A stretch of DNA of 64,000 nt from an uncultured Candidatus Saccharibacteria bacterium (GTDB taxonomy: Bacteria; Patescibacteriota; Minisyncoccia; UBA6257; Colwellbacteraceae). This document shows positions 738 through 53,753 of the stretch, one piece after another. Position 1 is the first letter of the stretch; each line of letters begins with the position of its first letter. The stretch covers positions 86,289 to 150,288 of the forward strand of contig CAYHTW010000001.1 in NCBI GenBank assembly GCA_964360065.1, in the 5' to 3' direction. Below the pieces are notes generated by a model. That model was not told the DNA's origin and searched no databases. It saw only the letters and a program-made list of their open reading frames with translations. The position numbers and the translations under genes were made by a program.

Positions 738-2509
738 ACGCCCAAAGACATTCCCTTGCCCATATTTTAGCGGCGGTGGTTTTGGAAAAGTTTCCTGCCG
801 CCAAATTTGGTATCGGCCCGACTATAGACAATGGCTTCTATTACGATTTCCAGCTTCCTAAAAACCTCGCCCCCGAAGACTTAAAAGACCTAGAGAAAGA
901 GATGAGACGGCTCGTCAGAATGAATCTGACTTTTACCGGTAAAAAAGTTACTCCCGTAGCCGCCAAGAAGGCTTTTTCTAAACAGCCTTTTAAGCTGGAC
1001 CTAATAAAAGAATTTGTTAATCCGCCAGCTGGCGGAAAAAAACAACCACTCACCGTCTATGACACGATTGATAAAAGAACCGGCAAAGTTTATTTCTCCG
1101 ACCTTTGCAAAGGAGGGCATGTCAAAAGTACCTCGGAAATAAACGCTGATGCTTTCAGGCTTACTAAGGTTGCCGGAGCTTATTGGAGAGGAGACGAAAA
1201 AAATCCCCAGCTGCAGAGAATCTACGGCATAGCCTTTCATCAAGAGCAGGAACTTAAAGATTACCAGGAGATGCTCCGCTTAGCTGAAGCAAGCGACCAC
1301 AGAAACCTAGCCGATAAATTGCAGCTGTTTATGGTTGACGAAGGCATTGGGCGAGGCCTCCCTCTTTGGCTGCCCAACGCCTTCACGACCAGGAAGGTTC
1401 TGGAAGACTATATATATGAGCTGGAGAGACGATCCGGCTACAAGCACGTCTTAACTCCACATCTAGCCAAAGAAGATCTCTATAAGACCTCCGGACACTT
1501 AGCTCACTATAAGAACGATATGTATGCTCCGCTTGAGATTGACGGCACTAAATATTATTTGAGGCCGATGAATTGTCCCCACCACCACAGCATCTATAAA
1601 TATTCCAAAAGAAGTTATCGTGAACTGCCTTTGCGTATTGCCGAATTCGGAACGGTATATCGCTACGAAAGAAGCGGCACTTTAAGCGGGCTTGTAAGAG
1701 TCAGGGGGTTTACGCAAAATGACGCGCATATTTATACCGATGAAGAAAGATTGGAGAGCGAGATAGTCGGAGTTTTGAAGCTGCACAAGAAAGTTTATGA
1801 AGATATGGGCATTAGCGACTATTGGTACAGATTGTCACTCCCAGACTTTAAGAACAATAAAGAAAAGTATGGTGACGTAAAAAACAAGGCCATGTGGGAA
1901 AAGGGTTCGGCTGTTTTGAGAAAGGCGCTGAAGGAGACCGGCCACAAATTCGTGGAAGCTCCCGGAGAGGCGACTTTCTACGGACCGAAAATTGATATCC
2001 AAATAAAAGATATTTACGGCAAAGAGGAAAGCATCGCTACAATACAAGTTGATTACTACTCTGCTGGTAAATTTAATCTGAACTACATTAGTAAAGATGG
2101 TAAAGAAAAGTCTGTCATTATTGTTCACCGGGCGATATTCGGATCATTTGATAGGTTCTTCGCTTTCCTTATAGAAAAGACCTCTGGCAACCTCCCGGTC
2201 TGGCTCGCGCCAATACAAGTAAAGATCTTAGCGGTAAGCGATAAACATTCGGAGTACGCTGAAAGTATTAATAAGAAACTAATGGAGGCAGGACTCCGAA
2301 GCGAAGTGGCGCCAAGCGATGAAACTTTGGGCAAGAGAATCCGCCAGGCTGAAATGCAAAGAATTCCCTATATAGCGGTTGTGGGTGATGAAGAAGTAAA
2401 AGCTGGCACAATGAGTATACGAGTACGAGGAGGGGGCACTGGAGGGCAAGTTACGCCAGAGAGCCTCATTGAAACTATCCGCAAGCAATCAGATAAGCTC
2501 TCTTCTTAA
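707..2509 (+). CDS. thrS: Threonyl-tRNA synthetase (no N-terminal TGS domain)
   Basis: HSLAHIL editing-domain motif, RDHRKL-like 'SDHRNLADKLQLF', class II motifs (MNCPHH, FRYERSGT), anticodon-binding C-terminus. Confidence 0.9.
   Translation: MQRSEKTNSLDAQRHSLAHILAAVVLEKFPAAKFGIGPTIDNGFYYDFQLPKNLAPEDLKDLEKEMRRLVRMNLTFTGKKVTPVAAKKAFSKQPFKLDLIKEFVNPPAGGKKQPLTVYDTIDKRTGKVYFSDLCKGGHVKSTSEINADAFRLTKVAGAYWRGDEKNPQLQRIYGIAFHQEQELKDYQEMLRLAEASDHRNLADKLQLFMVDEGIGRGLPLWLPNAFTTRKVLEDYIYELERRSGYKHVLTPHLAKEDLYKTSGHLAHYKNDMYAPLEIDGTKYYLRPMNCPHHHSIYKYSKRSYRELPLRIAEFGTVYRYERSGTLSGLVRVRGFTQNDAHIYTDEERLESEIVGVLKLHKKVYEDMGISDYWYRLSLPDFKNNKEKYGDVKNKAMWEKGSAVLRKALKETGHKFVEAPGEATFYGPKIDIQIKDIYGKEESIATIQVDYYSAGKFNLNYISKDGKEKSVIIVHRAIFGSFDRFFAFLIEKTSGNLPVWLAPIQVKILAVSDKHSEYAESINKKLMEAGLRSEVAPSDETLGKRIRQAEMQRIPYIAVVGDEEVKAGTMSIRVRGGGTGGQVTPESLIETIRKQSDKLSS
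1020..1037. repeat. GC palindrome family copy ATCCGCCAGCTGGCGGAA inside thrS (encodes PPAGG in frame)
   Basis: Exact CCGCCAGCTGGCGG core within coding sequence. Confidence 0.8.
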
Positions 2510-2515
2510 TCATCC

Positions 2516-3430
2516 ATGGAGAAGTTTAAAGTAATAGCCGTGGTAGGGCCGACCTCCAGCGGCAAAAGCGATCTGGCTGTGGAATTAGCCAGGCGTTTTA
2601 ATGGTGAAGTGATCTCGGCTGACTCCAGGCAGGTATATAAGGGTTTAAATATCGGCAGCGGCAAGATCACAATAAGCGAGATGAAAGGCGTGCCTCATTA
2701 TCTGCTAGATGTTTCTTCTCCGAAAGCTCCGCCGGCTGGCGGATTCACCGTATCTAAATACAAAGCATTGGCTGCGAAAGCCATCAATAAAATTATCAAA
2801 AAGCGTAAAGTACCGATTATCTGCGGCGGCACTGGGCTTTACGTTGATACTGTTCTTTATAACTGGCCGATACCAGAGGTTAAAGCTGATACGAAGCTGA
2901 GAGCCAAACTCCATTTGCAGAGCGCCGAGAAATTATTTAAGACATTGCAGAAACTGGATCCGAATAGAGCTAAAAATATTGATAGATTCAATAAGCTAAG
3001 ACTGGTGAGAGCCTTGGAAATAATAAAAACTACGGGCTCTCCTGTCCCCTACTTCCAACTCTTTGATTTAAATGCGTCGCCATACGAGATACTTAAAATA
3101 GGATTAAGGCCTAAAACTAAACTACTTAAAGAGAAAATAAGAAATCGGCTTCTGAAAATGATTAAGGCCGGAATGGTCAGAGAAGTTAGAAATTTAAAAA
3201 AGAATGGAGTGAATTCCAAAAGACTGGAAAGTTTCGGTTTGGAGTACAGATATGTTAATAGATATCTGGAGGGCCGGATTAGTAAAAACGAGATGGTGGA
3301 AGAACTAACAAGCCAGATAAATCATTATGCCAAGCGGCAAATGACCTGGTTCAAGAGAGATAAAAATACTATTTGGTTAGATGCTCCAGGAGCATCTTTT
3401 TCAAAAGTTCGGGATTTCCTCTCCCCTTAA
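2516..3430 (+). CDS. miaA: tRNA dimethylallyltransferase
   Basis: P-loop GPTSSGKS, ISADSRQVYKGLNIGSGK, GGTGLY motifs. Confidence 0.9.
   Translation: MEKFKVIAVVGPTSSGKSDLAVELARRFNGEVISADSRQVYKGLNIGSGKITISEMKGVPHYLLDVSSPKAPPAGGFTVSKYKALAAKAINKIIKKRKVPIICGGTGLYVDTVLYNWPIPEVKADTKLRAKLHLQSAEKLFKTLQKLDPNRAKNIDRFNKLRLVRALEIIKTTGSPVPYFQLFDLNASPYEILKIGLRPKTKLLKEKIRNRLLKMIKAGMVREVRNLKKNGVNSKRLESFGLEYRYVNRYLEGRISKNEMVEELTSQINHYAKRQMTWFKRDKNTIWLDAPGASFSKVRDFLSP
2727..2744. repeat. GC palindrome family copy CTCCGCCGGCTGGCGGAT inside miaA (encodes PPAGG in frame)
   Basis: CCGCCGGCTGGCGG core; the corresponding MiaA region looks about 4 aa longer than E. coli MiaA as I recall it. Confidence 0.8.
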
Positions 3431-4826: not shown

Positions 4827-4850
4827 TATTACAATTATAAACTTTATTCC

Positions 4851-6227: not shown

Positions 6228-8201
6228 CTATAAATCAAGGTTGGCGACTTGATGGCCCTTACTCATGATGAAGTGCTTCCTAGGCATCACTTCCGAACCC
6301 ATCAAAATATCAAAGAGTTTGTCGGCTTCGTGGGCATCTTCTACCGTGATTTGTTTCAGAAGACGGGTAGCCGGATCCATAGTAGTTTCCCAGAGTTGAC
6401 CCGGGTTCATCTCTCCCAAACCCTTGTAACGCTGGATATTAACATTGGCTGCTTTTCCGCCCGAGGCGCCTGCCTGTCCGGTAGGCAGGGATCCGCCTTT
6501 GGCGGAGAATTCTTTGAGGACTACGTCCTTCTCTACATCATCAAAAGCATATTTCACGGTCTTACCGGCGGATAACCTGTAGAGAGGAGGAGTAGCTATA
6601 TAGAGATACCCCGCTTCTATGATTTTAGGGAAATGGCGATAGAAAAGACTTAGCAGCAATGTGCGGATGTGAGCTCCATCAACGTCGGCATCGGTCATAA
6701 TTATAATCTTGTGATAGCGAATTTTAGCAAGATCAAACCCTTCGGCGATAGCTGTACCTAAAGCGATAACCAGGGACCTGATTTCTTTGTTGGCCAAAAT
6801 TTTATCGACCCTCGCTTTTTCCACATTCAAAATCTTGCCTCTTAAAGGCAGAATAGCTTGGAACCTTCTGTCTCTTCCTTGCTTGGCGCTGCCTCCGGCC
6901 GAATCCCCTTCAACTAGGAAGAGCTCCCCTTCTTCGGCTTTTCTGGTTTGGCAGTCGGAAAGTTTTCCAGGTAAAGCCAAACCCTCCAAAATACCTTTCC
7001 TTAAAATAGTTTCCTTGGCGGCTTTAGCGGCAGCGCGTGCTTTAGCGGCCAAAAGAGATTTGCCGACAATGGAACGGGCATCATTAGGGTGAGTTTCTAA
7101 GTATGACTTCAGGGCATCGGCTACTACGGTTTCTACAGCGCTTCTGGCTTCCGTATTACCTAACCTCGCTTTAGTCTGGCCTTCAAACTGCGGGTCGCGG
7201 ATTTTGACTGATATTATAGCGGCCAGGCCCTCTCGCACGTCGTCCCCCGTCAGATTATCTTCTTTTTCTTTAATATAACCTTCTTTCCTGCCATAGTCGT
7301 TTAGAACTCTAGTCAGAGCCGTACGGAAACCGGTTAAGTGCATACCGCCGTCGGTGGTATAAATGTTATTGGCGAAGGACATCTCTTTAATCTCCATGCC
7401 TTCGTTGTAAGAGAAGGCTACTTCCACGCCAACTCCTTCATATTCTTTTTCAACATAGAAAATGTCGTTTTGGATTAGCTTATCTCCACCATCATTCAAG
7501 TAATCCAAGAAGGACTTGATGCCTCCATCAAATTTAAAAGCGTGATAGAAAAGAGCTTCGTCGCGCTCATCTATAAGAACAATACGCACTCCCTTAGTAA
7601 GATAGGCTTGATCTCGGAGATAATCCAAAATCTTTTTTCTCTCAAACTCGGTCTTGGGGAAAATACTTTTATCAGGCAAAAAAGTTACCTTGGTGCCGGT
7701 ACGGTATCCCTTGCCCTCTTCTTTAACTTTTCCCTGGGGGACGCCTCTTTTATATTCTTGGGCATAAAGTTTACCATCACGGGTTACTTCAACCCTAAGC
7801 CAGTCTGACAAGGCATTAACCACTGAAACGCCTACGCCGTGCAAACCTCCAGAAACTTTATAAGCTTCTCCTCCGAATTTTCCTCCGGCATGCAAAACCG
7901 TCATAACAGTTTCCAAAGTAGATTTTTTGGTCTGCTTATGAGCTTCAATCGGTATACCCCTGCCGTTATCCAAAACGCTCAAGAGATTGTCTTTCAGGAT
8001 CCTGACTTCAATGTCATCAGCAAAGCCAGCCGTCGCTTCATCAATGGCGTTATTAACAACTTCCCAAACGAGATGGTGCAAGCCAGCCACATCAGTCGTT
8101 CCAACGTACATACCTGGTCTCTTGCGGACAGGGTCTAAGCCCTCAAGAACTTGAATGTCTGCGGCCGTATATGAGGTTGGTTTTTTGTCTTCTTTAGCCA
8201 T
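6228..8201 (-). CDS. gyrB: DNA gyrase subunit B (type IIA topoisomerase ATPase subunit)
   Basis: GHKL ATPase N-terminus (LEGLDPVRKRPGMYVGTTD), TOPRIM (EGDSAGG), 657 aa; GyrB vs ParE cannot be separated without phylogeny. Confidence 0.85.
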   Translation of the reverse strand: MAKEDKKPTSYTAADIQVLEGLDPVRKRPGMYVGTTDVAGLHHLVWEVVNNAIDEATAGFADDIEVRILKDNLLSVLDNGRGIPIEAHKQTKKSTLETVMTVLHAGGKFGGEAYKVSGGLHGVGVSVVNALSDWLRVEVTRDGKLYAQEYKRGVPQGKVKEEGKGYRTGTKVTFLPDKSIFPKTEFERKKILDYLRDQAYLTKGVRIVLIDERDEALFYHAFKFDGGIKSFLDYLNDGGDKLIQNDIFYVEKEYEGVGVEVAFSYNEGMEIKEMSFANNIYTTDGGMHLTGFRTALTRVLNDYGRKEGYIKEKEDNLTGDDVREGLAAIISVKIRDPQFEGQTKARLGNTEARSAVETVVADALKSYLETHPNDARSIVGKSLLAAKARAAAKAAKETILRKGILEGLALPGKLSDCQTRKAEEGELFLVEGDSAGGSAKQGRDRRFQAILPLRGKILNVEKARVDKILANKEIRSLVIALGTAIAEGFDLAKIRYHKIIIMTDADVDGAHIRTLLLSLFYRHFPKIIEAGYLYIATPPLYRLSAGKTVKYAFDDVEKDVVLKEFSAKGGSLPTGQAGASGGKAANVNIQRYKGLGEMNPGQLWETTMDPATRLLKQITVEDAHEADKLFDILMGSEVMPRKHFIMSKGHQVANLDL

Positions 8202-8424
8202 AATTATAAAATAAAACGCCCAAGTTTTAGGCCATTAAATTATAACTCAAATAGCCCTTGAAAACAAGTGCAAAGAAAGCCAAAAAACTCAGTATTAATG
8301 GGGATTAATTAACTAATAACGGCTTCTAGGGTAGAGACTAAAGAATCTTCGGTTTTTTTCTATTTCTCGATCCACTTCGGCATCCGTTAAAATGCCGGAA
8401 TCAGAGCGAAAAACTATACAGAAA

Positions 8425-9564
8425 TCACCTTAATCGGGCCTTAAATTGAGAGGCTGTTTGCCTGTAAATTTCGTCCTGAATGGCATCAACTTCCTCGCTT
8501 TTAAGAGTTCTATCTGTGCTTCTATATACGATACGATAGGTATAGCTGGATGTATCTGAACCAAATTTTTCTGGATCCTCATACTTATCAATCTGCTCAA
8601 CTTCTTCCACAATATTTCCACCAATATCACGAATAAGATCAAAATAATTATTAGGCACAAAATCATTACTTACGACGAAAGAGATGTCTCGCGTGATCGG
8701 CGGATACTTTGAAACTTCTTTATAAATATTCCCAAGCTTAAGTTGTTTTTTGACGCGCTCGTCTTCGGACCACAGTAATCTGATATCCGGCAATTCCATA
8801 CTAACGATAGCTAGTCTCTCCAACCCGAAGCCAAATGCCCAGCCAGTGTAGTTTGAGGAATCCACACCTAGCTTTTCTAAAACACTCCCTTTTACTACCC
8901 CGCTGCCAAGAACTTCAACCCAACTGCCATTCTTATCTACCTCCATTTCAATACTTGGGTGCGTATAAGGAAAAGTATCTTCGTTGAAGCGATATTTAAC
9001 GTCCCCACCAAACACCGCTTGAGCAATCTTCAGTAAAATATTTTTTAGGTCGTCAACCGTGATGGTCTTTTGGTCTTTAGGGATAAGATAATAACCATCC
9101 ATCTGATGAAACACATTCATGTGATGCCGGTCAATTTCATCCTTGCGGTATACCTTACCGTATGTCAGTACCCCAAGCGGTACGTTTTGCCGTACTTTTT
9201 CCTTAGCATGTTCAGAAATTAGATAGTAGTACCAGGATATTGTAGTGTGAGGGCGTAATATATATTCTTTATCCACGTAATAAGTATCTGAAGTGCTCCT
9301 CGCTGGATGGTCAGCCGGAAAATTAAACAAATCAAAGCTCTGTGCCGCCGGCACGATTTCCGGAACTTGGACAACGTCGAAGCTCTTAAAATCTGGTAGA
9401 TTAATGATTCGCTCGGCCAACTCATAGATTGGACTGCCAGGTGTCCTAGAGAGATCTGGCATTTTCAAAAAACGCTTCATTCGGTCAGCTTCAACGTCGC
9501 TCCTACTCTCTAGTAAAGACGTGATGCTCTTTTGCTCTTTTTCTGAATCTATTTTTATATCCAT
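8425..9564 (-). CDS. pheS: Phenylalanyl-tRNA synthetase alpha subunit
   Basis: Class II core motifs (FPYTHPSIEMEV, GFGLERLAIV). Confidence 0.85.
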   Translation of the reverse strand: MDIKIDSEKEQKSITSLLESRSDVEADRMKRFLKMPDLSRTPGSPIYELAERIINLPDFKSFDVVQVPEIVPAAQSFDLFNFPADHPARSTSDTYYVDKEYILRPHTTISWYYYLISEHAKEKVRQNVPLGVLTYGKVYRKDEIDRHHMNVFHQMDGYYLIPKDQKTITVDDLKNILLKIAQAVFGGDVKYRFNEDTFPYTHPSIEMEVDKNGSWVEVLGSGVVKGSVLEKLGVDSSNYTGWAFGFGLERLAIVSMELPDIRLLWSEDERVKKQLKLGNIYKEVSKYPPITRDISFVVSNDFVPNNYFDLIRDIGGNIVEEVEQIDKYEDPEKFGSDTSSYTYRIVYRSTDRTLKSEEVDAIQDEIYRQTASQFKARLR

Positions 9565-9634
9565 GACTTCAATGATAATGGTTTAAATTAGCTTTGACAA
9601 ATCACGTTTTAAGACCTAATATGGGCAATACTAT

Positions 9635-9705
9635 AGCGGGTTGGAGGAACGGTACCTCGAAAGCCTCATAAGCTTTAGGAGCGGGTTCAATTCCCGCACC
9701 CGCAA
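9635..9705 (+). tRNA. tRNA-Met/Ile2 (anticodon CAU), 71 nt, CCA not encoded
   Basis: Manual cloverleaf: acceptor AGCGGGT/ACCCGCA (A1·A72 mismatch), D stem GAGG/CCTC, anticodon arm AAAGC-CTCATAA-GCTTT, T arm GCGGG-TTCAATT-CCCGC. Confidence 0.75.
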
Positions 9706-9759
9706 CATATATTCGCTAGAATTATCTTCATCTAAGCCCGCTGCGCTCGTCCGGCGACT

Positions 9760-9777
9760 CTCCGCCAGCTGGCGGAT
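9760..9777. repeat. GC palindrome family copy: CTCCGCCAGCTGGCGGAT (intergenic)
   Basis: Exact 14-bp palindrome CCGCCAGCTGGCGG with conserved flanks; same motif at 1020, 2727, 31624, 53659. Confidence 0.8.
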
Positions 9778-9783
9778 TAGTCC

Positions 9784-9826
9784 TCGTTGCGAACCGTTCG
9801 TAGCTACGAACGGGCCATGCTTCGCA
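9784..9826. repeat. Nested perfect palindromes GTTGCGAA-[CCGTTCGTAG|CTACGAACGG]-..-TTCGCAAC
   Basis: 20-bp perfect palindrome inside an 8-bp inverted repeat; likely bidirectional terminator or structured RNA downstream of ligA and tRNA-Met. Confidence 0.5.
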
Positions 9827-9918
9827 ACTGCGGAGGCTTTAGAAAAGATAATTCTCGCTCACTTACCTAACTACTCCGTGGGTTTCGAATAAAAAGAAAT
9901 ATTCCTCACTAACCTAAA

Positions 9919-12345
<2,427 letters not shown>

Positions 12346-22745: not shown

Positions 22746-22810
22746 AATAGAATTTTAAAAAAAGTGTACTTAATTTATGGAAGGATAATTTCTCCCTAAC
22801 GTAGATTAAT

Positions 22811-23476
22811 CTAACTTTTAGATTTTTCTGCTTTCAGTCTCTGCCTCAACTTTTTCTCCTTTTTGTAGACTTCAATAACTCCTTTAATCACTATCTGTTT
22901 TAATGGTTCATAGTCTCTATATTTATCTGCCCTACAAAGGGCTTCTAGGTATTTTTCTTTCATATCTCCCTCATATTTAACTTGGGATGGCTTGATGCCA
23001 TATCTCTGTAAGACAAGATTGGTCAGTAAACGAGCAGTTCTTCCATTACCTTGAGAAAAAGGATGTATTGAAACGAATTTATGTTGCGCCCAAACAGCTA
23101 ATTCTATAACATCTGACCACCATTTCTTATACTTAGTACTTTTAAAAGAGCTAAACCTAGGGCGAAGCTGTATTAAGGAACTTCTGTAATCGAAATCTCT
23201 CCAGAAGTTATAAATTTCTTCGTTCACTTTACTTCCCTCAGGAGGTTGAACGCACCTTAACTTTCGGACACCTTGGCCAGTTACTCTGAACTTACCAGCG
23301 ATTTGTGGTTCAGAATCCTTAAGGATCTCTGCGTGTATAGACCTTATGGTGTTAAGAGTTATTTTCTGCCGACTATCAGCTATACTTTTCACTAAGCCAA
23401 TAGCTCTCCAGAGACCAGCTACCTCTTTATCATCAAGTTCTCTTTTAGTTTTAGGACGAGAGAACTTCTTTGCCAT
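22811..23476 (-). CDS. Fic/Doc family protein (Fido domain)
   Basis: HPFSQGNGRTARLL matches Fic motif HxFx(D/E)GNGRxxR except Q at the acidic position. Confidence 0.85.
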   Translation of the reverse strand: MAKKFSRPKTKRELDDKEVAGLWRAIGLVKSIADSRQKITLNTIRSIHAEILKDSEPQIAGKFRVTGQGVRKLRCVQPPEGSKVNEEIYNFWRDFDYRSSLIQLRPRFSSFKSTKYKKWWSDVIELAVWAQHKFVSIHPFSQGNGRTARLLTNLVLQRYGIKPSQVKYEGDMKEKYLEALCRADKYRDYEPLKQIVIKGVIEVYKKEKKLRQRLKAEKSKS

Positions 23477-23690
23477 ACAAAGCTTTCTCTATCTGTTCAT
23501 TAGTTAGCTTGGTTCCTTCTATTTTAGAAGAATAGTAAAGATGCCCAATCGCAATATCTTGGTTAAATCTGGCCTGCTCTAAAGCAGATAGAGATGGTAA
23601 TTTACCAACCTCACACTCAAGATTAATGAGATGCTCTATCAAGGCCTCATTAGGGGAAACCTTATTTTTTGAAACCATTTTTTTCTTCAT
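23451..23690 (-). CDS. Small ORF carrying Fic inhibitory-helix motif (SSKIEG = [ST]xxxE[GN]); antitoxin-like, or frameshifted N-terminus of the Fic gene
   Basis: Overlaps Fic ORF start by 26 bp in a different frame; motif matches class I Fic antitoxins. Confidence 0.5.
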   Translation of the reverse strand: MKKKMVSKNKVSPNEALIEHLINLECEVGKLPSLSALEQARFNQDIAIGHLYYSSKIEGTKLTNEQIEKALYGKEVLSS

Positions 23691-23854
23691 TTTCGAGGTC
23701 TTTTAAAGAGTTCATAGAACAATCGCTTGTTCTTGCTACAGTAACTATAGCGACTTAGCTTGCTATTGTAAAGTCTAGTAAATAGGCAAAAATAAAGCTC
23801 CTAATCCTCCCGCTTTTTTGAGAACCGACTTTTTAGCTCATCCAAAAAGGTAGA

Positions 23855-23972
23855 AAAGTTATTCTGGTTGATGACGTCTATACCTCGGGCGCCACGATGA
23901 GAGAAGCGGTAAAAGTTTTAAGGAAGAATGGAGTTAAAGAAGTTATGGGGTTGGTAGTGGCGAAGGTTTGAG
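23855..23972 (+). pseudogene. Duplicated 3' fragment of comFC (encodes ..KVILVDDVYTSGATMREAVKVLRKNGVKEVMGLVVAKV*), in-frame stop upstream
   Basis: About 118 bp direct repeat of 22627-22745; last 45 bp identical, upstream part about 88% identical. Confidence 0.7.
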
Positions 23973-23977
23973 AAAGA

Positions 23978-24676
23978 TTACTCAATATTGTCTGACTTTT
24001 GAAGATTATGCTTCATACAAAGCAAACGAACATTTTTTGAAGACAAACTAGTCCCTCCTCTAGAAAATGGTAGGTCGTGGTCAAAGTGAAGATTCTTAGT
24101 CTCTCCACACTTAACACATTTGCCCTCATCTCTTTTCCAGACCTCTCTCTTAACTTCAGATGGGATTAACCGCGTGTACTCAATATGAACTTTTCTTGAG
24201 TCAAGATTTTCTTGCCGATCCGACAATCTTAAGATGAAACGAAATACATTTCGTTTACCATCGTGGACAATTTTGTAATCAATAAGATCAAAATATCCTT
24301 TCAAAGACCATACTCCAGGGAAAATTTTCTCATATACTTTAACTGGCTCTGCTGCATCAGTATTTTCTTTATAACTTTTAGCCGCCTTAATAAAATATCC
24401 ATTCTGAGTTAATTGTCCGCTAGGTAATTTATCTGGCTGGTCTTCTACTTTAGGGTTGTGATTATAAGCCCTCCTAGAAACATCGTGACCCTCGTACTCA
24501 ATAGTTAACCCATCTTCGTGAACTTTATCCTGATAGGGCGCGTTAGATCTCTGAGACATTAATATTACAGAGTAAGCCGGGTTCATTCTAAAGTTCATAC
24601 CACGCTGTAAAGTCTGAACATTCTCAGCGTCACACATTTCTCTATAACTTAATATATCGTTCTGAATTTTATTCAT
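23978..24676 (-). CDS. SRA-like domain fused to HNH endonuclease (candidate modification-dependent type IV restriction enzyme)
   Basis: N-terminal SRA-like motifs (AYSVILMSQ.., EDGLTIEYEGHD, QLTQNGYF, EPVKVY); C-terminal HNH (CVKCGETKNLHFDHDLPFSRGG..N..LLC..HN). Confidence 0.65.
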   Translation of the reverse strand: MNKIQNDILSYREMCDAENVQTLQRGMNFRMNPAYSVILMSQRSNAPYQDKVHEDGLTIEYEGHDVSRRAYNHNPKVEDQPDKLPSGQLTQNGYFIKAAKSYKENTDAAEPVKVYEKIFPGVWSLKGYFDLIDYKIVHDGKRNVFRFILRLSDRQENLDSRKVHIEYTRLIPSEVKREVWKRDEGKCVKCGETKNLHFDHDLPFSRGGTSLSSKNVRLLCMKHNLQKSDNIE

Positions 24677-24691
24677 AAGTTAAAGTATTTA

Positions 24692-27001: not shown

Positions 27002-27003
27002 AA

Positions 27004-27351: not shown

Positions 27352-27438
27352 TTAATTGAACTAATTATGCCCCACTAAATAAGAATAGAGAAGGCTTAGT
27401 CCTAATATAGAGGCAGCTTTAGTGTTTTTGTATTGGAT

Positions 27439-29198: not shown

Positions 29199-29252
29199 AA
29201 ATTATTTCCAAAAAGAATTAATTAAAACTCTTAAATGCTCTCATTTTTGCAT

Positions 29253-29342
29253 TGGCGGAAGCGGGAGGATTTGAACCTCCGATACCCTTTCGGGTATACC
29301 ACATTTCGAGTGTGGCGCCTTCAACCACTCAGCCACGCTTCC
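29253..29342 (-). tRNA. tRNA-Ser (anticodon CGA), 90 nt, CCA encoded
   Basis: Manual fold: GGAAGCG acceptor, anticodon arm CCACA-CTCGAAA-TGTGG, long variable arm, T arm GGAGG-TTCAAAT-CCTCC, 3' CGCTTCC-G-CCA. Confidence 0.9.
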
Positions 29343-29371
29343 TTATTCTATTGTAATGGACTCCTTCAACC

Positions 29372-29407
29372 CCTGCCTGCCGGCAGGCAGGACTCAGCCA
29401 CGCTTCC
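29372..29407. repeat. 20-bp perfect palindrome CCTGCCTGCCGGCAGGCAGG followed by a 17-bp duplicate of the tRNA-Ser 5' end (ACTCAGCCACGCTTCCT)
   Basis: Second copy of the tRNA 5' acceptor/D-arm segment located about 50 bp upstream of the tRNA. Confidence 0.6.
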
Positions 29408-29476
29408 TTTTGGGTTTGTTAGAGCTTAGCCCGAAGGCTGGATAATCTCAAGATTAGCAATAAGGTGTCTGAATAA

Positions 29477-31066: not shown

Positions 31067-31481
31067 TCACGTCACCTGATTTAATTTCATAAGAAGAAGC
31101 TCCCTCATTTGAATACTTGCCGTTTACAAAAAACTGCCAATATTTTCCGCCGGTACCATTTTTTGAGCTGCCGATAGACTCCACCAAAACCCCCATACCA
31201 GGGTATTCTTTAAATTTCATTTCTATCCCCTCCCTAGCAGTGGCAATTTTTAAAGCATCAAAAAGATTAGTCCCTGCAACAAAGTTTTCCTGCAAAGATT
31301 TCTGGCCGGAACTTAAGTTAAGAAGAAGGGTGAATGTATTGGATGAAGGAGTAGTGGTACCAATAACGGATGGGTTATTGGTACTGACTGGAGCGATAGT
31401 CGGGTTTTGGTAGTAGTAGCCGGCAAACGCCAAAAGACCGACCACGAGAACCGAGAGAATTGATATTATTTTTTTATTCAT
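31038..31481 (-). CDS. DUF4430-like secreted/lipid-anchored protein
   Basis: N-terminal TM/signal, C-terminal GKYWQFFVNG beta-grasp-like motif. Confidence 0.5.
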   Translation of the reverse strand: MNKKIISILSVLVVGLLAFAGYYYQNPTIAPVSTNNPSVIGTTTPSSNTFTLLLNLSSGQKSLQENFVAGTNLFDALKIATAREGIEMKFKEYPGMGVLVESIGSSKNGTGGKYWQFFVNGKYSNEGASSYEIKSGDVIEWKFSNEQ

Positions 31482-31565
31482 TTGTTTTTATTTATCTTGA
31501 CCTTTTGTACACTGTAGCTCGCCCGGTTACTCATCAAAGTGAGTAACGAATCAAATAGACAAAAA

Positions 31566-31586
31566 TACCCGCCTCGAGGCGGGATA
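31566..31586. repeat. GC palindrome family variant TACCCGCCTCGAGGCGGGATA
   Basis: 16-bp perfect palindrome CCCGCCTCGAGGCGGG, same CCGCC..GGCGG architecture. Confidence 0.65.
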
Positions 31587-31623
31587 AAATACAACTTTAA
31601 AATAAAGTGGCCCTTGCTCGAGG

Positions 31624-31641
31624 TCCCGCCAGTTGGCGGAT
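31624..31641. repeat. GC palindrome family copy TCCCGCCAGTTGGCGGAT
   Basis: One mismatch from CCGCCAGCTGGCGG. Confidence 0.75.
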
Positions 31642-32003
31642 AAATTGATGCAGGGTTGGCCATCGGACTTACCATCTTACAAACCAGGAAACTTGTCCTG
31701 AGCTTGTCGAAGGAACACCGTAACGGCATTGTGTGGGATTCAAACCCATCGTTGGCAGCAAGGCAAAAAATGAAAATCTATTTTCATTTGAGCCACGCAA
31801 ACCAACGACATGAAGCTTTAGCTTCATACTTCCCCAACCGAGGTTCTATACAATCGGCTGCATTTATCTTTTTGAAGATCTGGAATCCGTCAACCGACGG
31901 AACAGAATACTGTCCTCAATTTAGTTTGAAAGGGCCTTGCCGGTCAAATGACCTGTGGATAGGCTACAATCAAAACAGAATCAAAAAGAGGGCACTTTTG
32001 GGG

Positions 32004-32369
32004 CTACCCTCTTTTGTTTACTATATCTCTCAATACTTCTGCGCCAATCATGGCTCCTACCAGATCTACTCCCAGATCATTTAATGCTTCGGCATGGCTG
32101 ACGTACAGATTCTCGTACCCGAGTATCATTTGGCCGATTTCCCAGCTTATTCCTATAAGCATTACAGGAAGAATGATATCTAAGTAAGATACTCGAAGTT
32201 TGTATGTCTTTAGGACAACATACGTTCCAAGCGCTAATCCCAAGCTCACAGTAAAGTGGGCCAGGATGTCGAAACCCGGAAGAATATGCCAAACGCCAAG
32301 GAGTTTACCGGCATAAGCAATGAAAGGCAGAAGGATACAAACTACAGCCAGCAAAGTTAATTTGCGCAT
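32004..32369 (-). CDS. Small integral membrane protein, unknown function
   Basis: 3-4 TM helices, 121 aa. Confidence 0.5.
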   Translation of the reverse strand: MRKLTLLAVVCILLPFIAYAGKLLGVWHILPGFDILAHFTVSLGLALGTYVVLKTYKLRVSYLDIILPVMLIGISWEIGQMILGYENLYVSHAEALNDLGVDLVGAMIGAEVLRDIVNKRG

Positions 32370-38226: not shown

Positions 38227-38251
38227 CTGGTGAACCTAGGGAGAAACGAAC
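38227..38251. repeat. Degenerate duplicate of tRNA-Ala(UGC) 3' end (CTGGTGAACCTAGGGAGAAACGAAC vs tRNA CTTGGTGGACCTAGGGAGAATCGAAC)
   Basis: 22/24 identity to the tRNA 3' acceptor/T-arm, about 130 bp downstream in direct orientation. Confidence 0.6.
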
Positions 38252-38382
38252 AACTCGTCCGCTCTAGGCGGACTACATTTTAAAACCCATCGGTTTTAAT
38301 ATTTCCGCTACGGGAAAATTCCAGTTTTCCCGACCCCTTTCCCAGTTTGATTCTCCCACGATATTTTGAGAAAAATGGTGCT

Positions 38383-38456
38383 TGGTGGACCTAGGGAGAA
38401 TCGAACTCCCCCCTCCTCGTTGCAAACGAGGCGTTCTACCACTGAACTATAGGCCC
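38383..38456 (-). tRNA. tRNA-Ala (anticodon UGC), 74 nt incl. CCA
   Basis: Manual fold; G3·U70 alanine identity pair, anticodon loop TTTGCAA. Confidence 0.9.
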
Positions 38457-45076: not shown

Positions 45077-45098
45077 GTTTATTATTTTACCCCCACAC

Positions 45099-45359
45099 CT
45101 AATCGATTTTAAGACTTTTAGTAATTCTTCGTTTTAGTTGATTTAAAGCGTTAGCTCGCAATTTTAAATTATGTTCTCTGTGTCTGGCGTCCTCTTCCGA
45201 CTTATATGCCTCGCAATACACAAGCTCAAAAGGCGAACGATATTTTGTTGAACGACTTAATCCTTTGTTGTGTTCTAAAAGTCTTCTTTTCAAATTATTA
45301 GTGGAGCCGATATACAACTCTTTATCTACTTTACTCCTAATAATATAAACACAGAACAT
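45099..45359 (-). CDS. GIY-YIG nuclease family protein (YhbQ/UPF0213-like, 86 aa)
   Basis: VYIIRS..LYIGSTNNLKRRLLEHNKG GIY-YIG motif. Confidence 0.8.
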   Translation of the reverse strand: MFCVYIIRSKVDKELYIGSTNNLKRRLLEHNKGLSRSTKYRSPFELVYCEAYKSEEDARHREHNLKLRANALNQLKRRITKSLKID

Positions 45360-45383
45360 TAATTAAATCGATTAGGTGTGGGG
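45100..45383. mobile_element. GIY-YIG cassette bounded by perfect 20-bp terminal inverted repeats (CCCCCACACCTAATCGATTT / AAATCGATTAGGTGTGGGGG)
   Basis: IRs at 45100-45119 and 45364-45383; inserted exactly between xseA stop and xseB start; IRs supply the last codons of xseA (NPHT*) and of the GIY-YIG ORF (KID*). Confidence 0.55.
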
Positions 45384-46856
45384 GTTAATTTTCTTTATTT
45401 CCGACTCTACTTCTCCTTTATATAGCCTAGTTTTCAACTTCTCCCCTACTTTGAGGCCAGAGGTGTCTCTGACCACTTTACCAGAATTGTCGGTCACGAT
45501 GCTATACCCAAGCTTCAGATTTCTTTCCGGGCTCACTCCTTCCAGGTATTTACCGACATTCTCTACGCTCTTTAGAGCTGCCTCCAAAGCGCTTTCGTAT
45601 GAGTCTATAATAGACGATTTAAGGTTCTCAAACTTAACGAAGGCTCTTTCAAAGTAGCTTGTCATCTTGGACAGCGAAGAACCGACAAAGTTGTCGGCAG
45701 AACGAATACAGCCTTCGTAACGGTTAAAAATTGTCACCTCAAGTGAAGGCAGGCGAACAGTCAGTTTATCCCAAGAGGCATTTACTCTAATAGCAGCTCC
45801 TGTAGGAGTTGAGGGGGCGTCGTCTCCGACGAGACTTGAGATAGGAACGTCCTTGTGGTGGCCTATGGCGCAAATAGTGGGCACCCTAGAGGCAAATATG
45901 GCTTTAGCAACCAGTTCGTTATTAAAGGCTTGCAGGTCTTCTAGGCTTCCGCCGCCACGCATTACCACCATCACATCAAGTTTCATTCTTTCGGCGTTGC
46001 TGTTAAACCAAGAGAGAGCTTCGCAGATATCGTCCACCGCTCTGACTCCCTCCACTCTGACGTCTTTGAGGAAAACCTCAAAGCCAAGTTCTCTGAGGTT
46101 GTTTTTAAAATCCTCTATGACTGCTCCCTGGCGTGAGGTAACTACACCAATTCTTTTAATAAACTCGGGTAATTCTCTTTTTCTGGTGAATAAGCCTTCC
46201 TTTTCCAGCTTGGCCTTCAGGAGTTCGTAAGCTTTTTTAAGAGACCCTTCGCCGGTTAGCTCAAGAGTTTGAATGGTAAAACTAAACTTACTGGTCCTTT
46301 CTATAACTTTCGGGAAGCCTCCTACTTTAACTTTCATCCCCTCTTCCAGCTCCAAACCAAGGCTATCGTAGGTATAAAGCCTCATATAGCACTCCATTAT
46401 CCCTTCACCGCTTTCATCTTTTAAAGTTATATAAACTCCGGTGGTGTGTAATTTAATTGTCACTATTTCTCCGCAAACAGAAACATTCTGAGAATAAAGA
46501 ATGCTATTTACCTTGCTCAAAAATTCTCTGACCGAAAAAATAACTTCGCCCGTTTCGGTGAACTGTGTATTTTTCTCTTCTTCTTTTTTGAACGCCCAAC
46601 TCGATTCACCTTTAGTGATGGCTAAAATAGCCGGACCAAGCTCTTTGAGCTTCTTAGGGCCGATTCCTTTTATGCCTTCTAATTCTTTTAAAGTCTGCGG
46701 CATAGACTCGGCAATGAAATCTATTGTTTTATTCTGGAGAATTTTAAATCTCTCCTGGCCTGTCTTTTGCGCCAAGTCGTTTCTTAGGTCGGTGAGCCGT
46801 CTTATCGCCAACCAATTTTTATTTCTAAAGCTTTCAGCGAAGGGCAGAGTATCCAT
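45372..46856 (-). CDS. xseA: Exodeoxyribonuclease VII large subunit with about 100-aa N-terminal HhH extension
   Basis: OB fold + GVVTSRQGAVIEDF catalytic core; extra N-terminal LKELEGIKGIGPKKLKELGP HhH. Confidence 0.85.
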   Translation of the reverse strand: MDTLPFAESFRNKNWLAIRRLTDLRNDLAQKTGQERFKILQNKTIDFIAESMPQTLKELEGIKGIGPKKLKELGPAILAITKGESSWAFKKEEEKNTQFTETGEVIFSVREFLSKVNSILYSQNVSVCGEIVTIKLHTTGVYITLKDESGEGIMECYMRLYTYDSLGLELEEGMKVKVGGFPKVIERTSKFSFTIQTLELTGEGSLKKAYELLKAKLEKEGLFTRKRELPEFIKRIGVVTSRQGAVIEDFKNNLRELGFEVFLKDVRVEGVRAVDDICEALSWFNSNAERMKLDVMVVMRGGGSLEDLQAFNNELVAKAIFASRVPTICAIGHHKDVPISSLVGDDAPSTPTGAAIRVNASWDKLTVRLPSLEVTIFNRYEGCIRSADNFVGSSLSKMTSYFERAFVKFENLKSSIIDSYESALEAALKSVENVGKYLEGVSPERNLKLGYSIVTDNSGKVVRDTSGLKVGEKLKTRLYKGEVESEIKKINPHT

Positions 46857-48272: not shown

Positions 48273-48346
48273 TAATAAACACAGTAACAAAAAACACCCG
48301 CCTTAGGCGGATGTCTCTGGTTTATTCTGAACTCGTGAAGGCGTAC

Positions 48347-50548: not shown

Positions 50549-50662
50549 ATTTAAAACTTCTATTTACCCTCCAAGCTATCAAGAAACGATAAAAGTCTTA
50601 AAGATGAGGGCAAACTTGTGCTTGCCCTATCTCTCGTAGGTTAACCTGAGTCATAAATCCGT

Positions 50663-51058: not shown

Positions 51059-51227
51059 AAGAATACATTAAGTGACCTACCTCAAGTACTCCCCGAAATA
51101 GGCCCCATTAATCGAATAAACTAATAAATTCGACCTAAACTAAAATCGGGCCACTTTCAGACGTACCTGATCCGATTTAAAGAACGGGCTGAATATACCA
51201 TATCTTAGCTTTTTTGTCAATATGAGC

Positions 51228-53753
51228 CTAGACAACTAGGTTAATAAGCCTATTAAGAACGAACACTATTTTAGTTATGTTTTTACCTCTGATGTACCTC
51301 TCTACGCTCTGGTCTTTTAGGGCTAAGGCAATCGCTTCTTTTTCTGTTAAGCCAGCGGAAGCCCTGACCTTAGCCCGAAACTTGCCGTTAACTTGTATCA
51401 CTAAATCAAAGTGATCTTCCTTAAACAATTTCTCGTTATATTCTGGCCACTTTTCTTTATGAATAGTTTTTTTGTTTTTTAGCTGACTCCAGAGTTCTTC
51501 GGTGATGTGAGGGGCAAAAGGAGCTAAGAGTTTCAAGAAAGATTCAAATTGCTTTTTAGTAATGGCTCCGGAACGCTTTTCAAAATCATTCAAGAGAATC
51601 ATCAGGGTTGAAATGGCAGTGTTATAACTAAGAGACTCAAGGTCGTCCCCTACTTTTTTAATAGTCTTGTTAACCAGTACATCAAGCTTAGCTTCGGCCT
51701 TAGGGGCGAATTTCTTAGTCTGGCCGATTACCCAGACTCTTTCAAGGAACCTGGTAATACCTTTAACGCCGCTGTCGCTAAAGTCTCCCCCATCTTCAAA
51801 TGGACCAAGAAACATCAAATACATTCTTAAAGCATCAGCGCCAAAGTTTTTAATGTACTCGTCTGGATTAACCACGTTACCCTTTGATTTGGACATTTTA
51901 CTTCCGCCTTTGATGATAAGGCCGTGGGCCCTGAACTTATGGAAAGGTTCCTCAAAATTAGTCAGTTTCATATCTTTAAAAAACATTGCCAAGAAACGAA
52001 CGTAAAGTAAATGTAAGACGGCGTGTTCCGCTCCACCGATGTACATATTCACTGGCAGCCATTTTTTTATTAACGCCTTATCAACGATGAATTTTTGATT
52101 TTTGCCGCCCAATTTTATTGAACGAGCCTCGCCCTTTCGGGGCGGGATTTTTGATTTTTGATTTCCGAGGATAAGGTATCCGAGGTAATACCAAGCAGAA
52201 TCCAGGAAGGTGTCTGATACGTCTGTCTCACGTTTCCCCCAGCTTTTACACTTAGGGCACCTGACTTTGTAGAAAGACTCAACTGAGGCTAATGGAGACT
52301 GATCTGTACCGGTGGGCCTGAAGTTTTTCACATAAGGCAGTTTAACCGGCAAATTCTTTTCGGGCACAATATACCAGCCCGGCATATCTTCCCTTTCGCC
52401 AAAACCCCTGCCCGCACAGGCTTTACAGAAGATCATCGGTATGGGCGGACCCCAATATCTCTGCCTGGAGATAAGCCAATCCCTTAATCTATACTGTGTC
52501 TGTTTTTTAGCGCCAATTTGTTTTACTATCGCGTCTTTAGCATGGTCCGAAAACATCCCATTAAACTTATGGGAATTAATCAAATGTCCGGTGCCGATAT
52601 AAGCCCGCTCATGTTCATTACAAGCTTCGTTATGCTCTTTGGGACAGACAACAACGCGTATGGGAAGCTTAAACTTATGAGCGAACTCAAAATCTCTCTC
52701 ATCGTGAGCAGGTACTGCCATAATAGCTCCTGTGCCAACATTACCCAAAACATAGTCTGATATCCAGACTGGAATTTTTTCTCTGCTCCCGGGATTCACC
52801 GCTGAAACGCCAGAAAAAATCCCCGTCTTTTCGGTTGTATTTTCTCTTTTGGCGGATGACCTGCGCGCTAGAGCACCAGCGACATACTTTTTAACTTTTT
52901 TGTCCGCCTGCCAGCCAATATCAAGCCATAGCTTCGCGCGCTCGGGAGAGATAACCATAAATGTGGCACCGAATATGGTATCGGGGCGCGTAGTGAATAT
53001 TTCTAGCGAATGTTTATCATTCTTCTGCACAGGAATATCAATCAGCGGGAACGTAATTAAAGCGCCTTCCGAACGTCCTATCCAGTTTCTCTGGGCTATT
53101 TTTACTTTTTCAGACCAATCAATTTTATCCAAATTATTAAGCAATCTTTCCGAGTAATCGGTGATCTTGAAAAACCATTGTTCCAAGTCTCTATTGATAA
53201 CTTCGGTACTACAGCGTTCGCACTTGCTGTTAATAACCTGCTCGTCGGCCAATACGGTTTTGCACGATGGGCACCAATTAACCGGAGACTTCTTGCGGTA
53301 AGCCAAACCGCGCTTGAACATTTGAGTGAAGATCCACTGTGTCCACTTATAGTAAGCCGGGTCATAAGTAGCCAGGGCCTCTTTCCAAGCAAACCCGTTG
53401 CCAATAAGTTGGAGCTGACGGTAAAAATTCTTTTGGGAAATCTTAGCTTGTTCGGCTGGGTGACGACCAATTTTAATAGCATAGTTTTCGGAGTGTATTC
53501 CGAAGCCGTCCAAACCGATTGGTTCAAAGACATCGTTACCCTGCATTCGCTTGAAGCGACCATAAATATCCGTACCTGTAAAAGCATACATATTGCCAAC
53601 ATGTAGCCCCTCAGCCGAAGGGTACGGAAACATCATTAGATTATAGAAGGGTTTTTTGCTCCGCCGGCTGGCGGATTTCCAGTCCGGCTCATAGGTTTTT
53701 TCGGCAAGCCATATTTTCTGCCACTTCTTTTCTATCTTAGAAAAAGGATACAT
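51228..53753 (-). CDS. leuS: Leucyl-tRNA synthetase
   Basis: HVGN (HIGH-like), KMSKS, editing CP1 domain; 841 aa. Confidence 0.9.
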   Translation of the reverse strand: MYPFSKIEKKWQKIWLAEKTYEPDWKSASRRSKKPFYNLMMFPYPSAEGLHVGNMYAFTGTDIYGRFKRMQGNDVFEPIGLDGFGIHSENYAIKIGRHPAEQAKISQKNFYRQLQLIGNGFAWKEALATYDPAYYKWTQWIFTQMFKRGLAYRKKSPVNWCPSCKTVLADEQVINSKCERCSTEVINRDLEQWFFKITDYSERLLNNLDKIDWSEKVKIAQRNWIGRSEGALITFPLIDIPVQKNDKHSLEIFTTRPDTIFGATFMVISPERAKLWLDIGWQADKKVKKYVAGALARRSSAKRENTTEKTGIFSGVSAVNPGSREKIPVWISDYVLGNVGTGAIMAVPAHDERDFEFAHKFKLPIRVVVCPKEHNEACNEHERAYIGTGHLINSHKFNGMFSDHAKDAIVKQIGAKKQTQYRLRDWLISRQRYWGPPIPMIFCKACAGRGFGEREDMPGWYIVPEKNLPVKLPYVKNFRPTGTDQSPLASVESFYKVRCPKCKSWGKRETDVSDTFLDSAWYYLGYLILGNQKSKIPPRKGEARSIKLGGKNQKFIVDKALIKKWLPVNMYIGGAEHAVLHLLYVRFLAMFFKDMKLTNFEEPFHKFRAHGLIIKGGSKMSKSKGNVVNPDEYIKNFGADALRMYLMFLGPFEDGGDFSDSGVKGITRFLERVWVIGQTKKFAPKAEAKLDVLVNKTIKKVGDDLESLSYNTAISTLMILLNDFEKRSGAITKKQFESFLKLLAPFAPHITEELWSQLKNKKTIHKEKWPEYNEKLFKEDHFDLVIQVNGKFRAKVRASAGLTEKEAIALALKDQSVERYIRGKNITKIVFVLNRLINLVV
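52090..52172. repeat. In-frame hairpin element inside leuS: TIRs CCGCCC/GGGCGG with internal stem-loop, flanked by tandem GATTTTT heptamers
   Basis: gaatttttgatttttg|CCGCCCaattttattgaacgagcctcgccctttcgGGGCGG|gatttttgatttttgatttcc; corresponds to about 20 extra aa (..NQKSKIPPRKGEARSIKLGGKNQKF..) relative to E. coli LeuRS as I recall it. Confidence 0.55.
53659..53676. repeat. GC palindrome family copy CTCCGCCGGCTGGCGGAT inside leuS N-terminus (encodes SASRR)
   Basis: CCGCCGGCTGGCGG core. Confidence 0.8.

Follow-up and report, generated by a model that had tools for sequence, protein, structure and literature searches.

Miniature GC-rich palindromes in essential genes of a Patescibacteria lineage, with small GIY-YIG nucleases as candidate mobilizers

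Several families of palindromic repeats are known to enter genes. The Rickettsia palindromic element (RPE) RPE-1 is about 100 to 150 bp long and adds 30 to 50 amino acids. Among shorter repeats, repetitive extragenic palindromes (REPs) tagged with CGTC, which include Rickettsia RPE-4/6 and Neisseria dRS3, have no known dedicated transposase (Di Nocera et al. 2013, PMC3733652), and REP-like GTAG and CGTC palindromes have been described inside genes, tRNA-synthetase genes among them (PMC3733652). The mobile GC clusters of yeast mitochondria have inserted in frame into var1, mutate fastest in their loops, and nest and merge with one another (PMC8811140). Here we analyze a 64,000-nt stretch of DNA (the window) from an uncultured Candidatus Saccharibacteria bacterium of the Patescibacteria, or candidate phyla radiation (CPR; assembly GCA_964360065.1, contig CAYHTW010000001.1, positions 86,289 to 150,288), in which a short palindrome, TCCGCC-RGCT-GGCGGA, recurs in thrS, miaA, leuS, and a structured RNA. 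Contigs encoding MiaA and identical to the window's were found in several groundwater assemblies from Hainich well H52, in the 0.1- to 0.2-µm filter fractions. We propose that the palindromes are probably copies of a selfish hairpin module, REP-like but miniature, that has 6-bp arms, TCCGCC and GGCGGA, and a 3- to 4-nt loop; its selfish or mobile character is inferred from the pattern of gains described below. Literature searches with the exact 14-mers, with PPAGG, and with peptide or DNA strings typical of translated hairpin repeats returned nothing relevant.

The palindrome and its empty sites in the window

The original prediction held that palindromes with the core CCGCC-N4-GGCGG are scattered through the window more often than chance allows and lie in frame within some genes. 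We counted six cores (at 1022, 2729, 9762, 31569, 31626, and 53661) against 0.02 expected from dinucleotide-preserving shuffles, whose maximum was one, placing the palindrome far above chance. Four copies are exact TCCGCC-RGCT-GGCGGA 16-mers (at 1021, 2728, 9761, and 53660); three are intragenic, in thrS, miaA, and leuS, and the fourth lies in a non-coding RNA hairpin. Because single arms, and 9-mers made of one arm plus the loop, occur at or near their background count, the enrichment belongs to the whole palindrome. The palindrome is 75% GC in a window of about 43% GC, forms as single-stranded DNA a hairpin with a 6-bp stem at about -6 to -7 kcal/mol, and on direct reading contains no stop codon in any of the six frames. 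Other over-represented words in the window (GGCAGGGGT, TCTTCGGCAA, GAGGTTGGT) are ordinary coding words, except that one copy overlaps a palindrome of a second, CCTGCC/GGCAGG family at 29372. The copies on which the argument rests, with the elements that surround or interrupt them, are as follows.

1021..1036, in thrS (707-2509, plus strand): exact 16-mer TCCGCCAGCTGGCGGA, read as (N)PPAGG
2728..2743, in miaA (2516-3430, plus strand): 16-mer TCCGCCGGCTGGCGGA, read as (A)PPAGG
6456-6468/6490-6491, in gyrB: second old 15-nt variant (TCCGCCCGAGGCG..GA), interrupted
6469-6489, in gyrB: 21-nt second-family palindrome CCTGCCTGTCCGGTAGGCAGG that splits this variant, specific to the window
6492..6506, in gyrB (6228-8201, minus strand): older 15-nt variant TCCGCCTTTGGCGGA, read as SAKGG
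9707-9862: structured element of about 150 nt, directly 3' of tRNA-Met
9761..9776: exact 16-mer capping a hairpin of this element
53660..53675, in leuS (51228-53753, minus strand): 16-mer variant, read as SASRR

The frames confirm the predicted readings, PPAGG in thrS and miaA and SASRR in leuS. We compared filled and empty sites at the codon level using the syntenic contigs L126/L127, L128, and L129, and L189 and L190 for leuS. In thrS, the window has GTT AAT CCG CCA GCT GGC GGA AAA where L126 and L129 (91% amino acid identity) have GTT AAA GAC AAA, a net gain of 15 nt; the empty allele is GTTAAAGACAAA. In miaA, AAA GCT CCG CCG GCT GGC GGA TTC in the window corresponds to AAA TCA ACT TTC in relatives, a net gain of 12 nt that bears out the earlier impression of a MiaA about 4 amino acids longer than its E. 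coli homologue. MiaA homologues at 71 to 81% identity read SPK-ST-FTV where the window reads SPK-APPAGG-FTV, and the insert is restricted to the window and three near relatives (L129 and P0001 among them), being decayed in two (PPTGG, PLAGG). In an AlphaFold model of the window MiaA with a mean predicted local distance difference test (pLDDT) score of 91, APPAGG lies in a coil between a strand and the helix at residues 79-95, within the lowest-confidence 10-residue block of the protein (69). Distant CPR MiaA homologues carry PPAGG-type inserts at two recurrent sites, A (P0037, P0070) and B (P0031, P0037, P0085), which fits many independent hits filtered through a few permissive loops.

The leuS site reads AAA TCC GCC AGC CGG CGG AGC AAA AAA in the window and AAA AAA GCC AAA AAA in the closest homologue, L189 (84% identity), a net gain of 12 nt. 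Across 120 CPR LeuRS sequences, the consensus is EPDLKKAKKPFYNL, and the window has DWKSASRRSKKPFYNL. Another Hainich CPR species (L190, 75% LeuRS identity) carries the same 16-mer two codons away, an independent second insertion into this loop. In gyrB, the tandem 15-mers TCC GCC AAA GGC GGA (SAKGG) and TCN GCC TCG GGC GGA (SASGG) are common to the window, L126/L127, and L128 (with one mismatch in L128), while L129 is without the entire 17-amino-acid stretch. The window-specific palindrome CCTGCCTGTCCGGTAGGCAGG splits the second 15-mer and gives GyrB an extra LPTGQAG, where L126 has uninterrupted TCCGCCCGAGGCAGA. A supposed half-site at 6483 is in fact the complete 15-nt variant TCCGCCTTTGGCGGA at 6492-6506 beside the interrupted one. 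A second proposed half-site, TTGGCGGAT at 52846 in leuS, is indeed a half-site, with no support for its membership in the family.

The same kind of event is visible in RNA. The element at 9707-9862 has a fold z-score of -5.4 relative to shuffles and is kept in four relatives, with ten base pairs preserved through two-sided changes; it may represent a small RNA not yet described. One of its hairpins has, at its apex, GACTC-TCCGCCAGCTGGCGGA-TTAGTC in the window where L126 has GACTC-GCTGGC-TTAGTC, with GCTTGC in L128 and GCTTAC in L129 at the corresponding position, a net gain of 10 nt. In each of the five empty/filled pairs, a patch of 1 to 11 nt has been swapped for the palindrome with a variable net gain. 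The DNA-level empty sites in thrS, miaA, and leuS, together with the older gyrB and the RNA hairpin loop sites, support the idea of a short palindrome that enters genes in frame. Among the compared relatives, only the window has the copies in thrS, leuS, and the RNA loop; because these, the miaA copy, and the gyrB copies differ in how widely they are shared, the inserts were gained at several different times. By comparison of related sequences, then, we show that this Patescibacteria lineage has acquired the module on several separate occasions and that hairpin apexes are where it lands in structured nucleic acids. In protein genes, the surviving events are all in frame, with the PPAGG frame strongly favored; the copies are therefore translated as small insertions in surface loops and afterwards decay neutrally.

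Further palindromes in the window are less uniform.

31568..31583, minus strand: CCCGCCTCGAGGCGGG (CCCGCC-TCGA-GGCGGG), then a T-run, read directly
31625..31640: diverged copy CCCGCCAGTTGGCGGA, with C at position 1 and an AGTT loop, in a 520-bp hairpin-rich non-coding region
31886..31901: TCCGTCAACCGACGGA, one change per arm with pairing kept, a further family member
38258..38272: 15-nt variant TCCGCTCTAGGCGGA, directly after a 24-nt partial copy of a tRNA-Ala 3' end, a further family member
48297..48311, minus strand: CCCGCCTTAGGCGGA, then a T-run, between convergent genes

By eye, a hairpin followed by a T-run is present on the minus strand at 31568 and 48297, and the four exact 16-mers are not so placed. 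The proposal that all listed palindromes form one family thus holds for the four exact copies and, as a diverged member, for the copy at 31625, whose AGTT loop is also seen in Bacteroidota; the set as a whole is heterogeneous, since the copies at 31568 and 48297 are probably ordinary intrinsic terminators at transcription-unit ends and not family members. Neither intergenic site (31481-32004 or 9707-9862) matched an Rfam-type RNA family at gathering or permissive thresholds.

Several observations touch the same genes and regions. The 520-bp non-coding stretch at 31481-32004 is crowded with hairpins, including CCTGAGCTTGTCGAAGG at 31697, a string with counterparts in repeat-derived open reading frames (ORFs) of many metagenomic genomes. 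The LeuRS N-terminal loop before PFYNLMMFPYPS is a hotspot where many CPR lineages carry unrelated short inserts (FDFTRGKP, TPRQARG, GGRGSPR, and others, in the alignment of P0121-P0240), which suggests that other hairpin families may write into the same permissive loop. The miaA gene of L128 (10001-10972) has its own 63-nt GC-rich hairpin insert, SARGPLRRSFSEASGPASDWN, which starts with TCCGCCAGAGGC and gives the impression that a different hairpin has entered a 15-mer. The L128 ThrRS (8160-9950) is only 59% identical to that of the window (707-2509), compared with 94% and 80% for the neighboring GyrB and MiaA, suggesting that thrS may have been replaced in one of the two lineages. Between gyrB and the RNA element, positions 8425-9564 encode a 379-amino-acid single-chain PheRS-like protein (tRNA-synt_2d plus FDX-ACB) that resembles a monomeric PheRS of the mitochondrial type; at this place PheS and PheT are separate genes in L126 and L129, and L128 has the same short form as the window.

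Occurrence in other phyla and beside tRNA genes

An exact-match scan of species-representative genomes returned at least 119 DNA stretches with the palindrome. Among the matches listed, to which the statements and counts of this paragraph refer, low-GC genomes include Patescibacteria of many classes, Bacteroidota (with the cultured genera Sphingobacterium, Terrimonas, Mucilaginibacter, and Longitalea), Elusimicrobia, Cloacimonadota, and low-GC Gammaproteobacteria. The perfect palindrome outnumbers both one-off variants combined by 65 to 19 at low-GC loci, compared with 24 to 24 at high-GC loci. Because this high-GC ratio is as expected by chance, and because high-GC matches lie in long ORFs in the frame xR(Q/R)LA(E/D)x, we regard them as coincidental coding words. 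Low-GC coding copies are strongly biased toward the PPAGG frame (22 of 28, p about 1e-6), which CPR genes use nearly always, and since the 16-mer has no stop codon in any frame, this bias must reflect selection on the peptide; Pro-Pro-Ala-Gly-Gly is the most loop-friendly reading of the 16-mer. Many non-coding copies cap a longer host hairpin, the outer stem of which varies between genomes: at least five of eight flanking positions are complementary in 17 of 84 low-GC copies compared with 1 of 48 high-GC copies. A loose test for (C/T)GTC-AT... flanks was passed by 15 of 85 low-GC copies, of which about 13 are convincing CGTC-REP apexes.

No CGTC-type hairpin was found in the window, where two regular-expression matches are intragenic and do not form hairpins. 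Because the palindrome is nested at CGTC-REP apexes elsewhere and the window has no CGTC REP, we consider the module related to the CGTC class but no member of it. In Bacteroidota, its loops vary freely and it occurs in tandem non-coding hairpin arrays as well as at REP apexes. Viral contigs also carry the 16-mer, in the helix-coding frame xRQLAE where GC content is high and as multi-copy hairpins in a few mid-GC phage contigs; as pointers to a vector, the viral contigs with the 16-mer gave no decisive lead.

A second recurrent setting is the truncated tRNA gene copy. In five other loci, a truncated tRNA duplicate lies beside the intact gene, and the 16-mer palindrome replaces or enters one of its loops; the window has two related arrangements.

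L012: tRNA-Cys, D-loop
L044: tRNA-Met
L093: tRNA-Lys
L100: tRNA-Asn, D-loop
L111 (Longitalea luteola): tRNA-Gly, anticodon loop
Window, 29343-29410: truncated duplicate (first 27 nt) of tRNA-Ser, upstream of the intact gene (29253-29342, minus strand)
Window, 29372..29391: 20-nt second-family palindrome CCTGCCTGCCGGCAGGCAGG, a clean D-loop insert in this duplicate
Window, 38228-38251: 24-nt partial copy of a tRNA-Ala 3' end, then TCCGCTCTAGGCGGA; intact gene at 38383-38456

Thus, the same module circulates in other low-GC phyla, at the apexes of CGTC-type REPs and in the loops of truncated tRNA copies.

Small GIY-YIG nuclease genes

We clustered the ORFs of 71 low-GC loci carrying the motif. 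The most recurrent neighboring family is a stand-alone GIY-YIG nuclease of 77 to 102 amino acids (Pfam PF01541). A profile search found eight small GIY-YIG genes in 1.48 Mb, seven of them in about 0.5 Mb of motif-selected low-GC DNA, and for six of these seven a 16-mer is no more than 163 bp away (p about 1.6e-6). At L044 and L100, tRNA fragments bearing the 16-mer stand on both sides of the GIY-YIG gene.

A reciprocal test used 80 metagenome loci from the Joint Genome Institute (L191-L270; 203 kb, 38% GC) picked solely by similarity to one Bacteroidota GIY-YIG protein; because the query was a single Bacteroidota protein, this test covers Bacteroidota, not CPR. TCCGCC-N4-GGCGGA occurs around these genes in 12 copies in nine loci, compared with 0.004 expected, and is the commonest GC-rich palindrome with a 6-bp stem there, with freely variable loops. 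It usually replaces the CTTCG-type apex of a host hairpin of the form GAGAT(T/C)CCTCG...CTCGG(A/G)ATGACA. CGTC-type tags reach 0.2 to 0.57 per 100 bp per locus at 100 to 500 bp upstream and 0 to 400 bp downstream of the GIY-YIG genes; only three fall in the first 100 bp upstream, and most bins farther than 500 bp away are at or below 0.03, with none exceeding 0.09. This flanking pattern, which resembles that of a REPtron (a REP system with its own transposase gene), is of note because the CGTC class has been reported without a dedicated transposase (PMC3733652).

The window itself contains one such gene, within a cassette.

45089..45385, minus strand: 297-bp cassette between xseA and xseB, with an 86-amino-acid stand-alone GIY-YIG gene (45099-45359)

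The cassette ends in perfect 21-bp inverted repeats (ACCCCCACACCTAATCGATTT), and its insertion adds three codons (PHT) to xseA. In L271-L273 (91, 79, and 73% XseA identity), the site is empty, with the xseA stop followed directly by the xseB start; because all three relatives have this arrangement, the cassette is a fresh insertion. Elsewhere in the window, a defense-like cluster at 22800-29200 comprises a Fic protein, an SLFN-like helicase with an S24 peptidase domain, a MazG-like protein, and an M78 peptidase with DUF4411.

Based on these observations, we propose a mechanism in which a trans-acting activity would propagate the module. The small stand-alone GIY-YIG nuclease would be the best candidate, its genes being hairpin-flanked elsewhere and one being itself a mobile cassette here. 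It would cleave DNA where it is unpaired or looped, and repair would then copy the hairpin in from another locus.

Taken further, these elements lead to a more tentative proposal, to which we give a minority chance: that GIY-YIG nucleases of 77 to 102 amino acids are the missing mobilizers of GC-rich mini-hairpins across phyla, both CGTC-type REPs and the TCCGCC/GGCGGA module. In a REPtron-like system without a REP-associated tyrosine transposase (RAYT), they would write loop inserts of four to seven residues (PPAGG and others) into essential proteins of ultra-small CPR bacteria and remodel the neighborhoods of tRNA genes.

Origin of the copies and comparison with described repeats

Several points weigh against reading the palindromes as copies of a selfish module. 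None of the five empty/filled pairs has a recognizable target duplication, and neither a transposition intermediate nor a conserved target sequence was found among them; the unequal net gains (+10, +12, and +15 nt) are not directly expected of a fixed cut-and-paste element. An identical 16-mer across phyla is more than vertical descent can account for and would need horizontal spread or a shared enzyme. The copy counts cover 64 kb of the source genome, and the scan of other genomes is a sample, not a census. As for the enzyme, the nearest 16-mer in the window is 8.3 kb from the GIY-YIG gene, the inverted repeats of the cassette are unrelated in sequence to the palindromes, and the association was measured mostly in Bacteroidota, where co-residence in hairpin-rich intergenic DNA could explain it. 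For these three reasons, we infer, and do not assert, that the GIY-YIG nuclease is the candidate trans-acting enzyme of the palindromes.

Some of the same features would be expected if the palindromes were scars of repair or immunity, that is, if a nuclease such as a GIY-YIG enzyme cut the DNA and a templated or filler hairpin sealed the break and destroyed the cleavage site, so that the copies mark past cuts. Every event swaps a few nucleotides without target duplication, the net gain is variable, and palindrome-bearing truncated tRNA copies flank GIY-YIG genes beside the intact tRNA at L044, L100, and L012. The tRNA arrangement recalls SegB, a free-standing homing endonuclease of the GIY-YIG type encoded within the phage T4 tRNA gene cluster (PMC2330249). 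However, the empty sites have no common sequence, and filler with the same 16 bases in unrelated phyla would need to be copied from a template; because identical filler must be template-copied, this explanation merges with the module that we favor. As a separate account, we consider it unlikely.

The palindromes could also be excision footprints, left by a larger transposon with terminal inverted repeats starting TCCGCCAG whose ends were joined after its exit. In keeping with this idea, the motif is most variable at its center (AGCT, GGCT, AGCC, AGTT, and 3-nt loops), the sites have lost flanking bases, and the GIY-YIG cassette shows that elements bounded by inverted repeats move in this lineage. 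Yet about 600 kb of low-GC DNA contains no solo half-site pair (TCCGCCAG...CTGGCGGA) bracketing a longer element, and solo halves occur at background level and without structure. Moreover, the length retained in a footprint normally varies, but these arms do not, and the genes at L044 and L100 are flanked by complete palindromes, not half-sites. We therefore find excision footprints quite improbable.

A selected binding site for a chromosomal protein, whether a parS-like, matS-like, or other nucleoid or segregation site, or a bidirectional Chi-like signal, is very improbable. A perfect 16-bp palindrome in four to five copies over about 53 kb, tolerated in genes as parS is, would suit such a function, and GCTGGCGG is one base off E. 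coli Chi (GCTGGTGG). A parS-like role is nevertheless contradicted, because the palindrome's sites are unconserved among relatives, with none in relatives at 84 to 91% protein identity, and because old copies decay (PLAGG and PPTGG in miaA, and the mismatch in L128 gyrB). In addition, the palindrome does not match the parS consensus TGTTNCACGTGAAACA, there is no parB among the window genes, and Bacteroidota have cores with free loops, tandem non-coding arrays, and REP apexes.

A DNA uptake sequence (DUS), raised in the original prediction as an alternative and suggested by window genes for PilM/N/O, PilB/T/C, and a ComF-like phosphoribosyltransferase that could read it as part of a type IV pilus or competence machinery, deserves practically no credence: enrichment is confined to the full palindrome, with half-sites at background level; the density is about 1 per 16 kb (four to five copies in 64 kb), not the roughly 1 per kb of uptake sequences, which are non-palindromic 9- to 12-mers enriched also as single copies; close relatives have no copies; and the same core is found in unrelated phyla. 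A DUS-like motif is thus ruled out by density and half-site counts.

If the palindromes are copies of a selfish hairpin module, streamlined CPR/Patescibacteria genomes of about 1 Mb have recently been invaded by a repeat small enough for essential genes, and palindrome inserts would contribute to the lineage-specific protein insertions typical of CPR. PPAGG-type pentapeptides in CPR proteins could then be read as scars of DNA events and not as functional motifs, which bears on annotation, alignment, and phylogeny. The 16-mer would tie CPR gene inserts to CGTC-class REPs, and the GIY-YIG association offers a concrete candidate enzyme for REP-like palindromes.

Among described repeats, CGTC-tagged REPs are likewise short, dispersed GC-rich stem-loops found in several phyla, including Bacteroidetes, and sometimes in functional genes, and some CGTC-tagged hairpins of other genomes carry the 16-mer at their apex. 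The class is defined by a (C/T)GTC tag, an 8- to 9-bp stem that begins with AT, a 4- to 5-nt loop, and a short tail, over 20 to 40 bp; the window copies fall outside this definition, being 15 to 16 nt long with a 6-bp stem and having no CGTC or GTAG tag, tail, or outer stem. They also differ from GTAG-type REPs, which are imperfect palindromes of 20 to 40 bp: reading of all flanks revealed no GTAG tag, and the Pfam calls for all window genes include no RAYT (IS200-like/Y1 transposase). Moreover, GTAG-type REPs are extragenic, whereas three of the four exact window copies and the gyrB variants are intragenic. In REPIN/RAYT systems (REPtrons), a nuclease or transposase gene present once lies between the hairpin repeats that it supposedly mobilizes, an arrangement also seen in the Bacteroidota GIY-YIG loci; the candidate enzyme here would belong to the GIY-YIG nucleases and not to the IS200-like tyrosine (HUH) transposases, and the GTAG tag is lacking.

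Like Rickettsia palindromic elements, the window copies lie in frame in housekeeping genes (thrS, miaA, leuS, gyrB), are absent from orthologues, and are translated and tolerated at protein surfaces. With 12 to 15 nt net, or four to five amino acids, they are set apart from RPE-1 by its described size, as well as by their different phylum and cross-phylum core. The in-frame mini-insert is less unprecedented than the suggestion of a new miniature RPE implied, given intragenic REPs (PMC3733652) and the var1 GC clusters (PMC8811140). Yeast GC clusters and the PstI palindromes of Neurospora are, like the 16-mer, GC-rich palindromes that invade an AT-richer genome with an unresolved mobilizer (PMC8811140); the yeast clusters share with the window copies their lineage-specific, in-frame presence in a protein gene, as well as fast-changing loops and a tendency to nest, and the PstI palindromes flank tRNA genes, as do several 16-mer copies. 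However, these elements are organellar, measure 30 to 50 bp, and have reported terminal AG/TAG target duplications, which the window copies lack, and one yeast bypasses its GC-cluster inserts in translation, whereas the window frames stay open.

Free-standing GIY-YIG homing endonucleases such as T4 SegB (PMC2330249) likewise lie beside rearranged or duplicated tRNA sequence, as at L044, L100, L106, and L117. Unlike them, the small GIY-YIG proteins described here have 77 to 102 amino acids and a catalytic domain only, with no DNA-binding domain, and homing endonuclease genes lack the kind of 21-bp inverted repeats that enclose the window gene. What sets the module apart from all of these systems is its size of 15 to 16 nt, its freedom from tag, tail, and target duplication, its cross-phylum core, and its preference for PPAGG in essential CPR genes.

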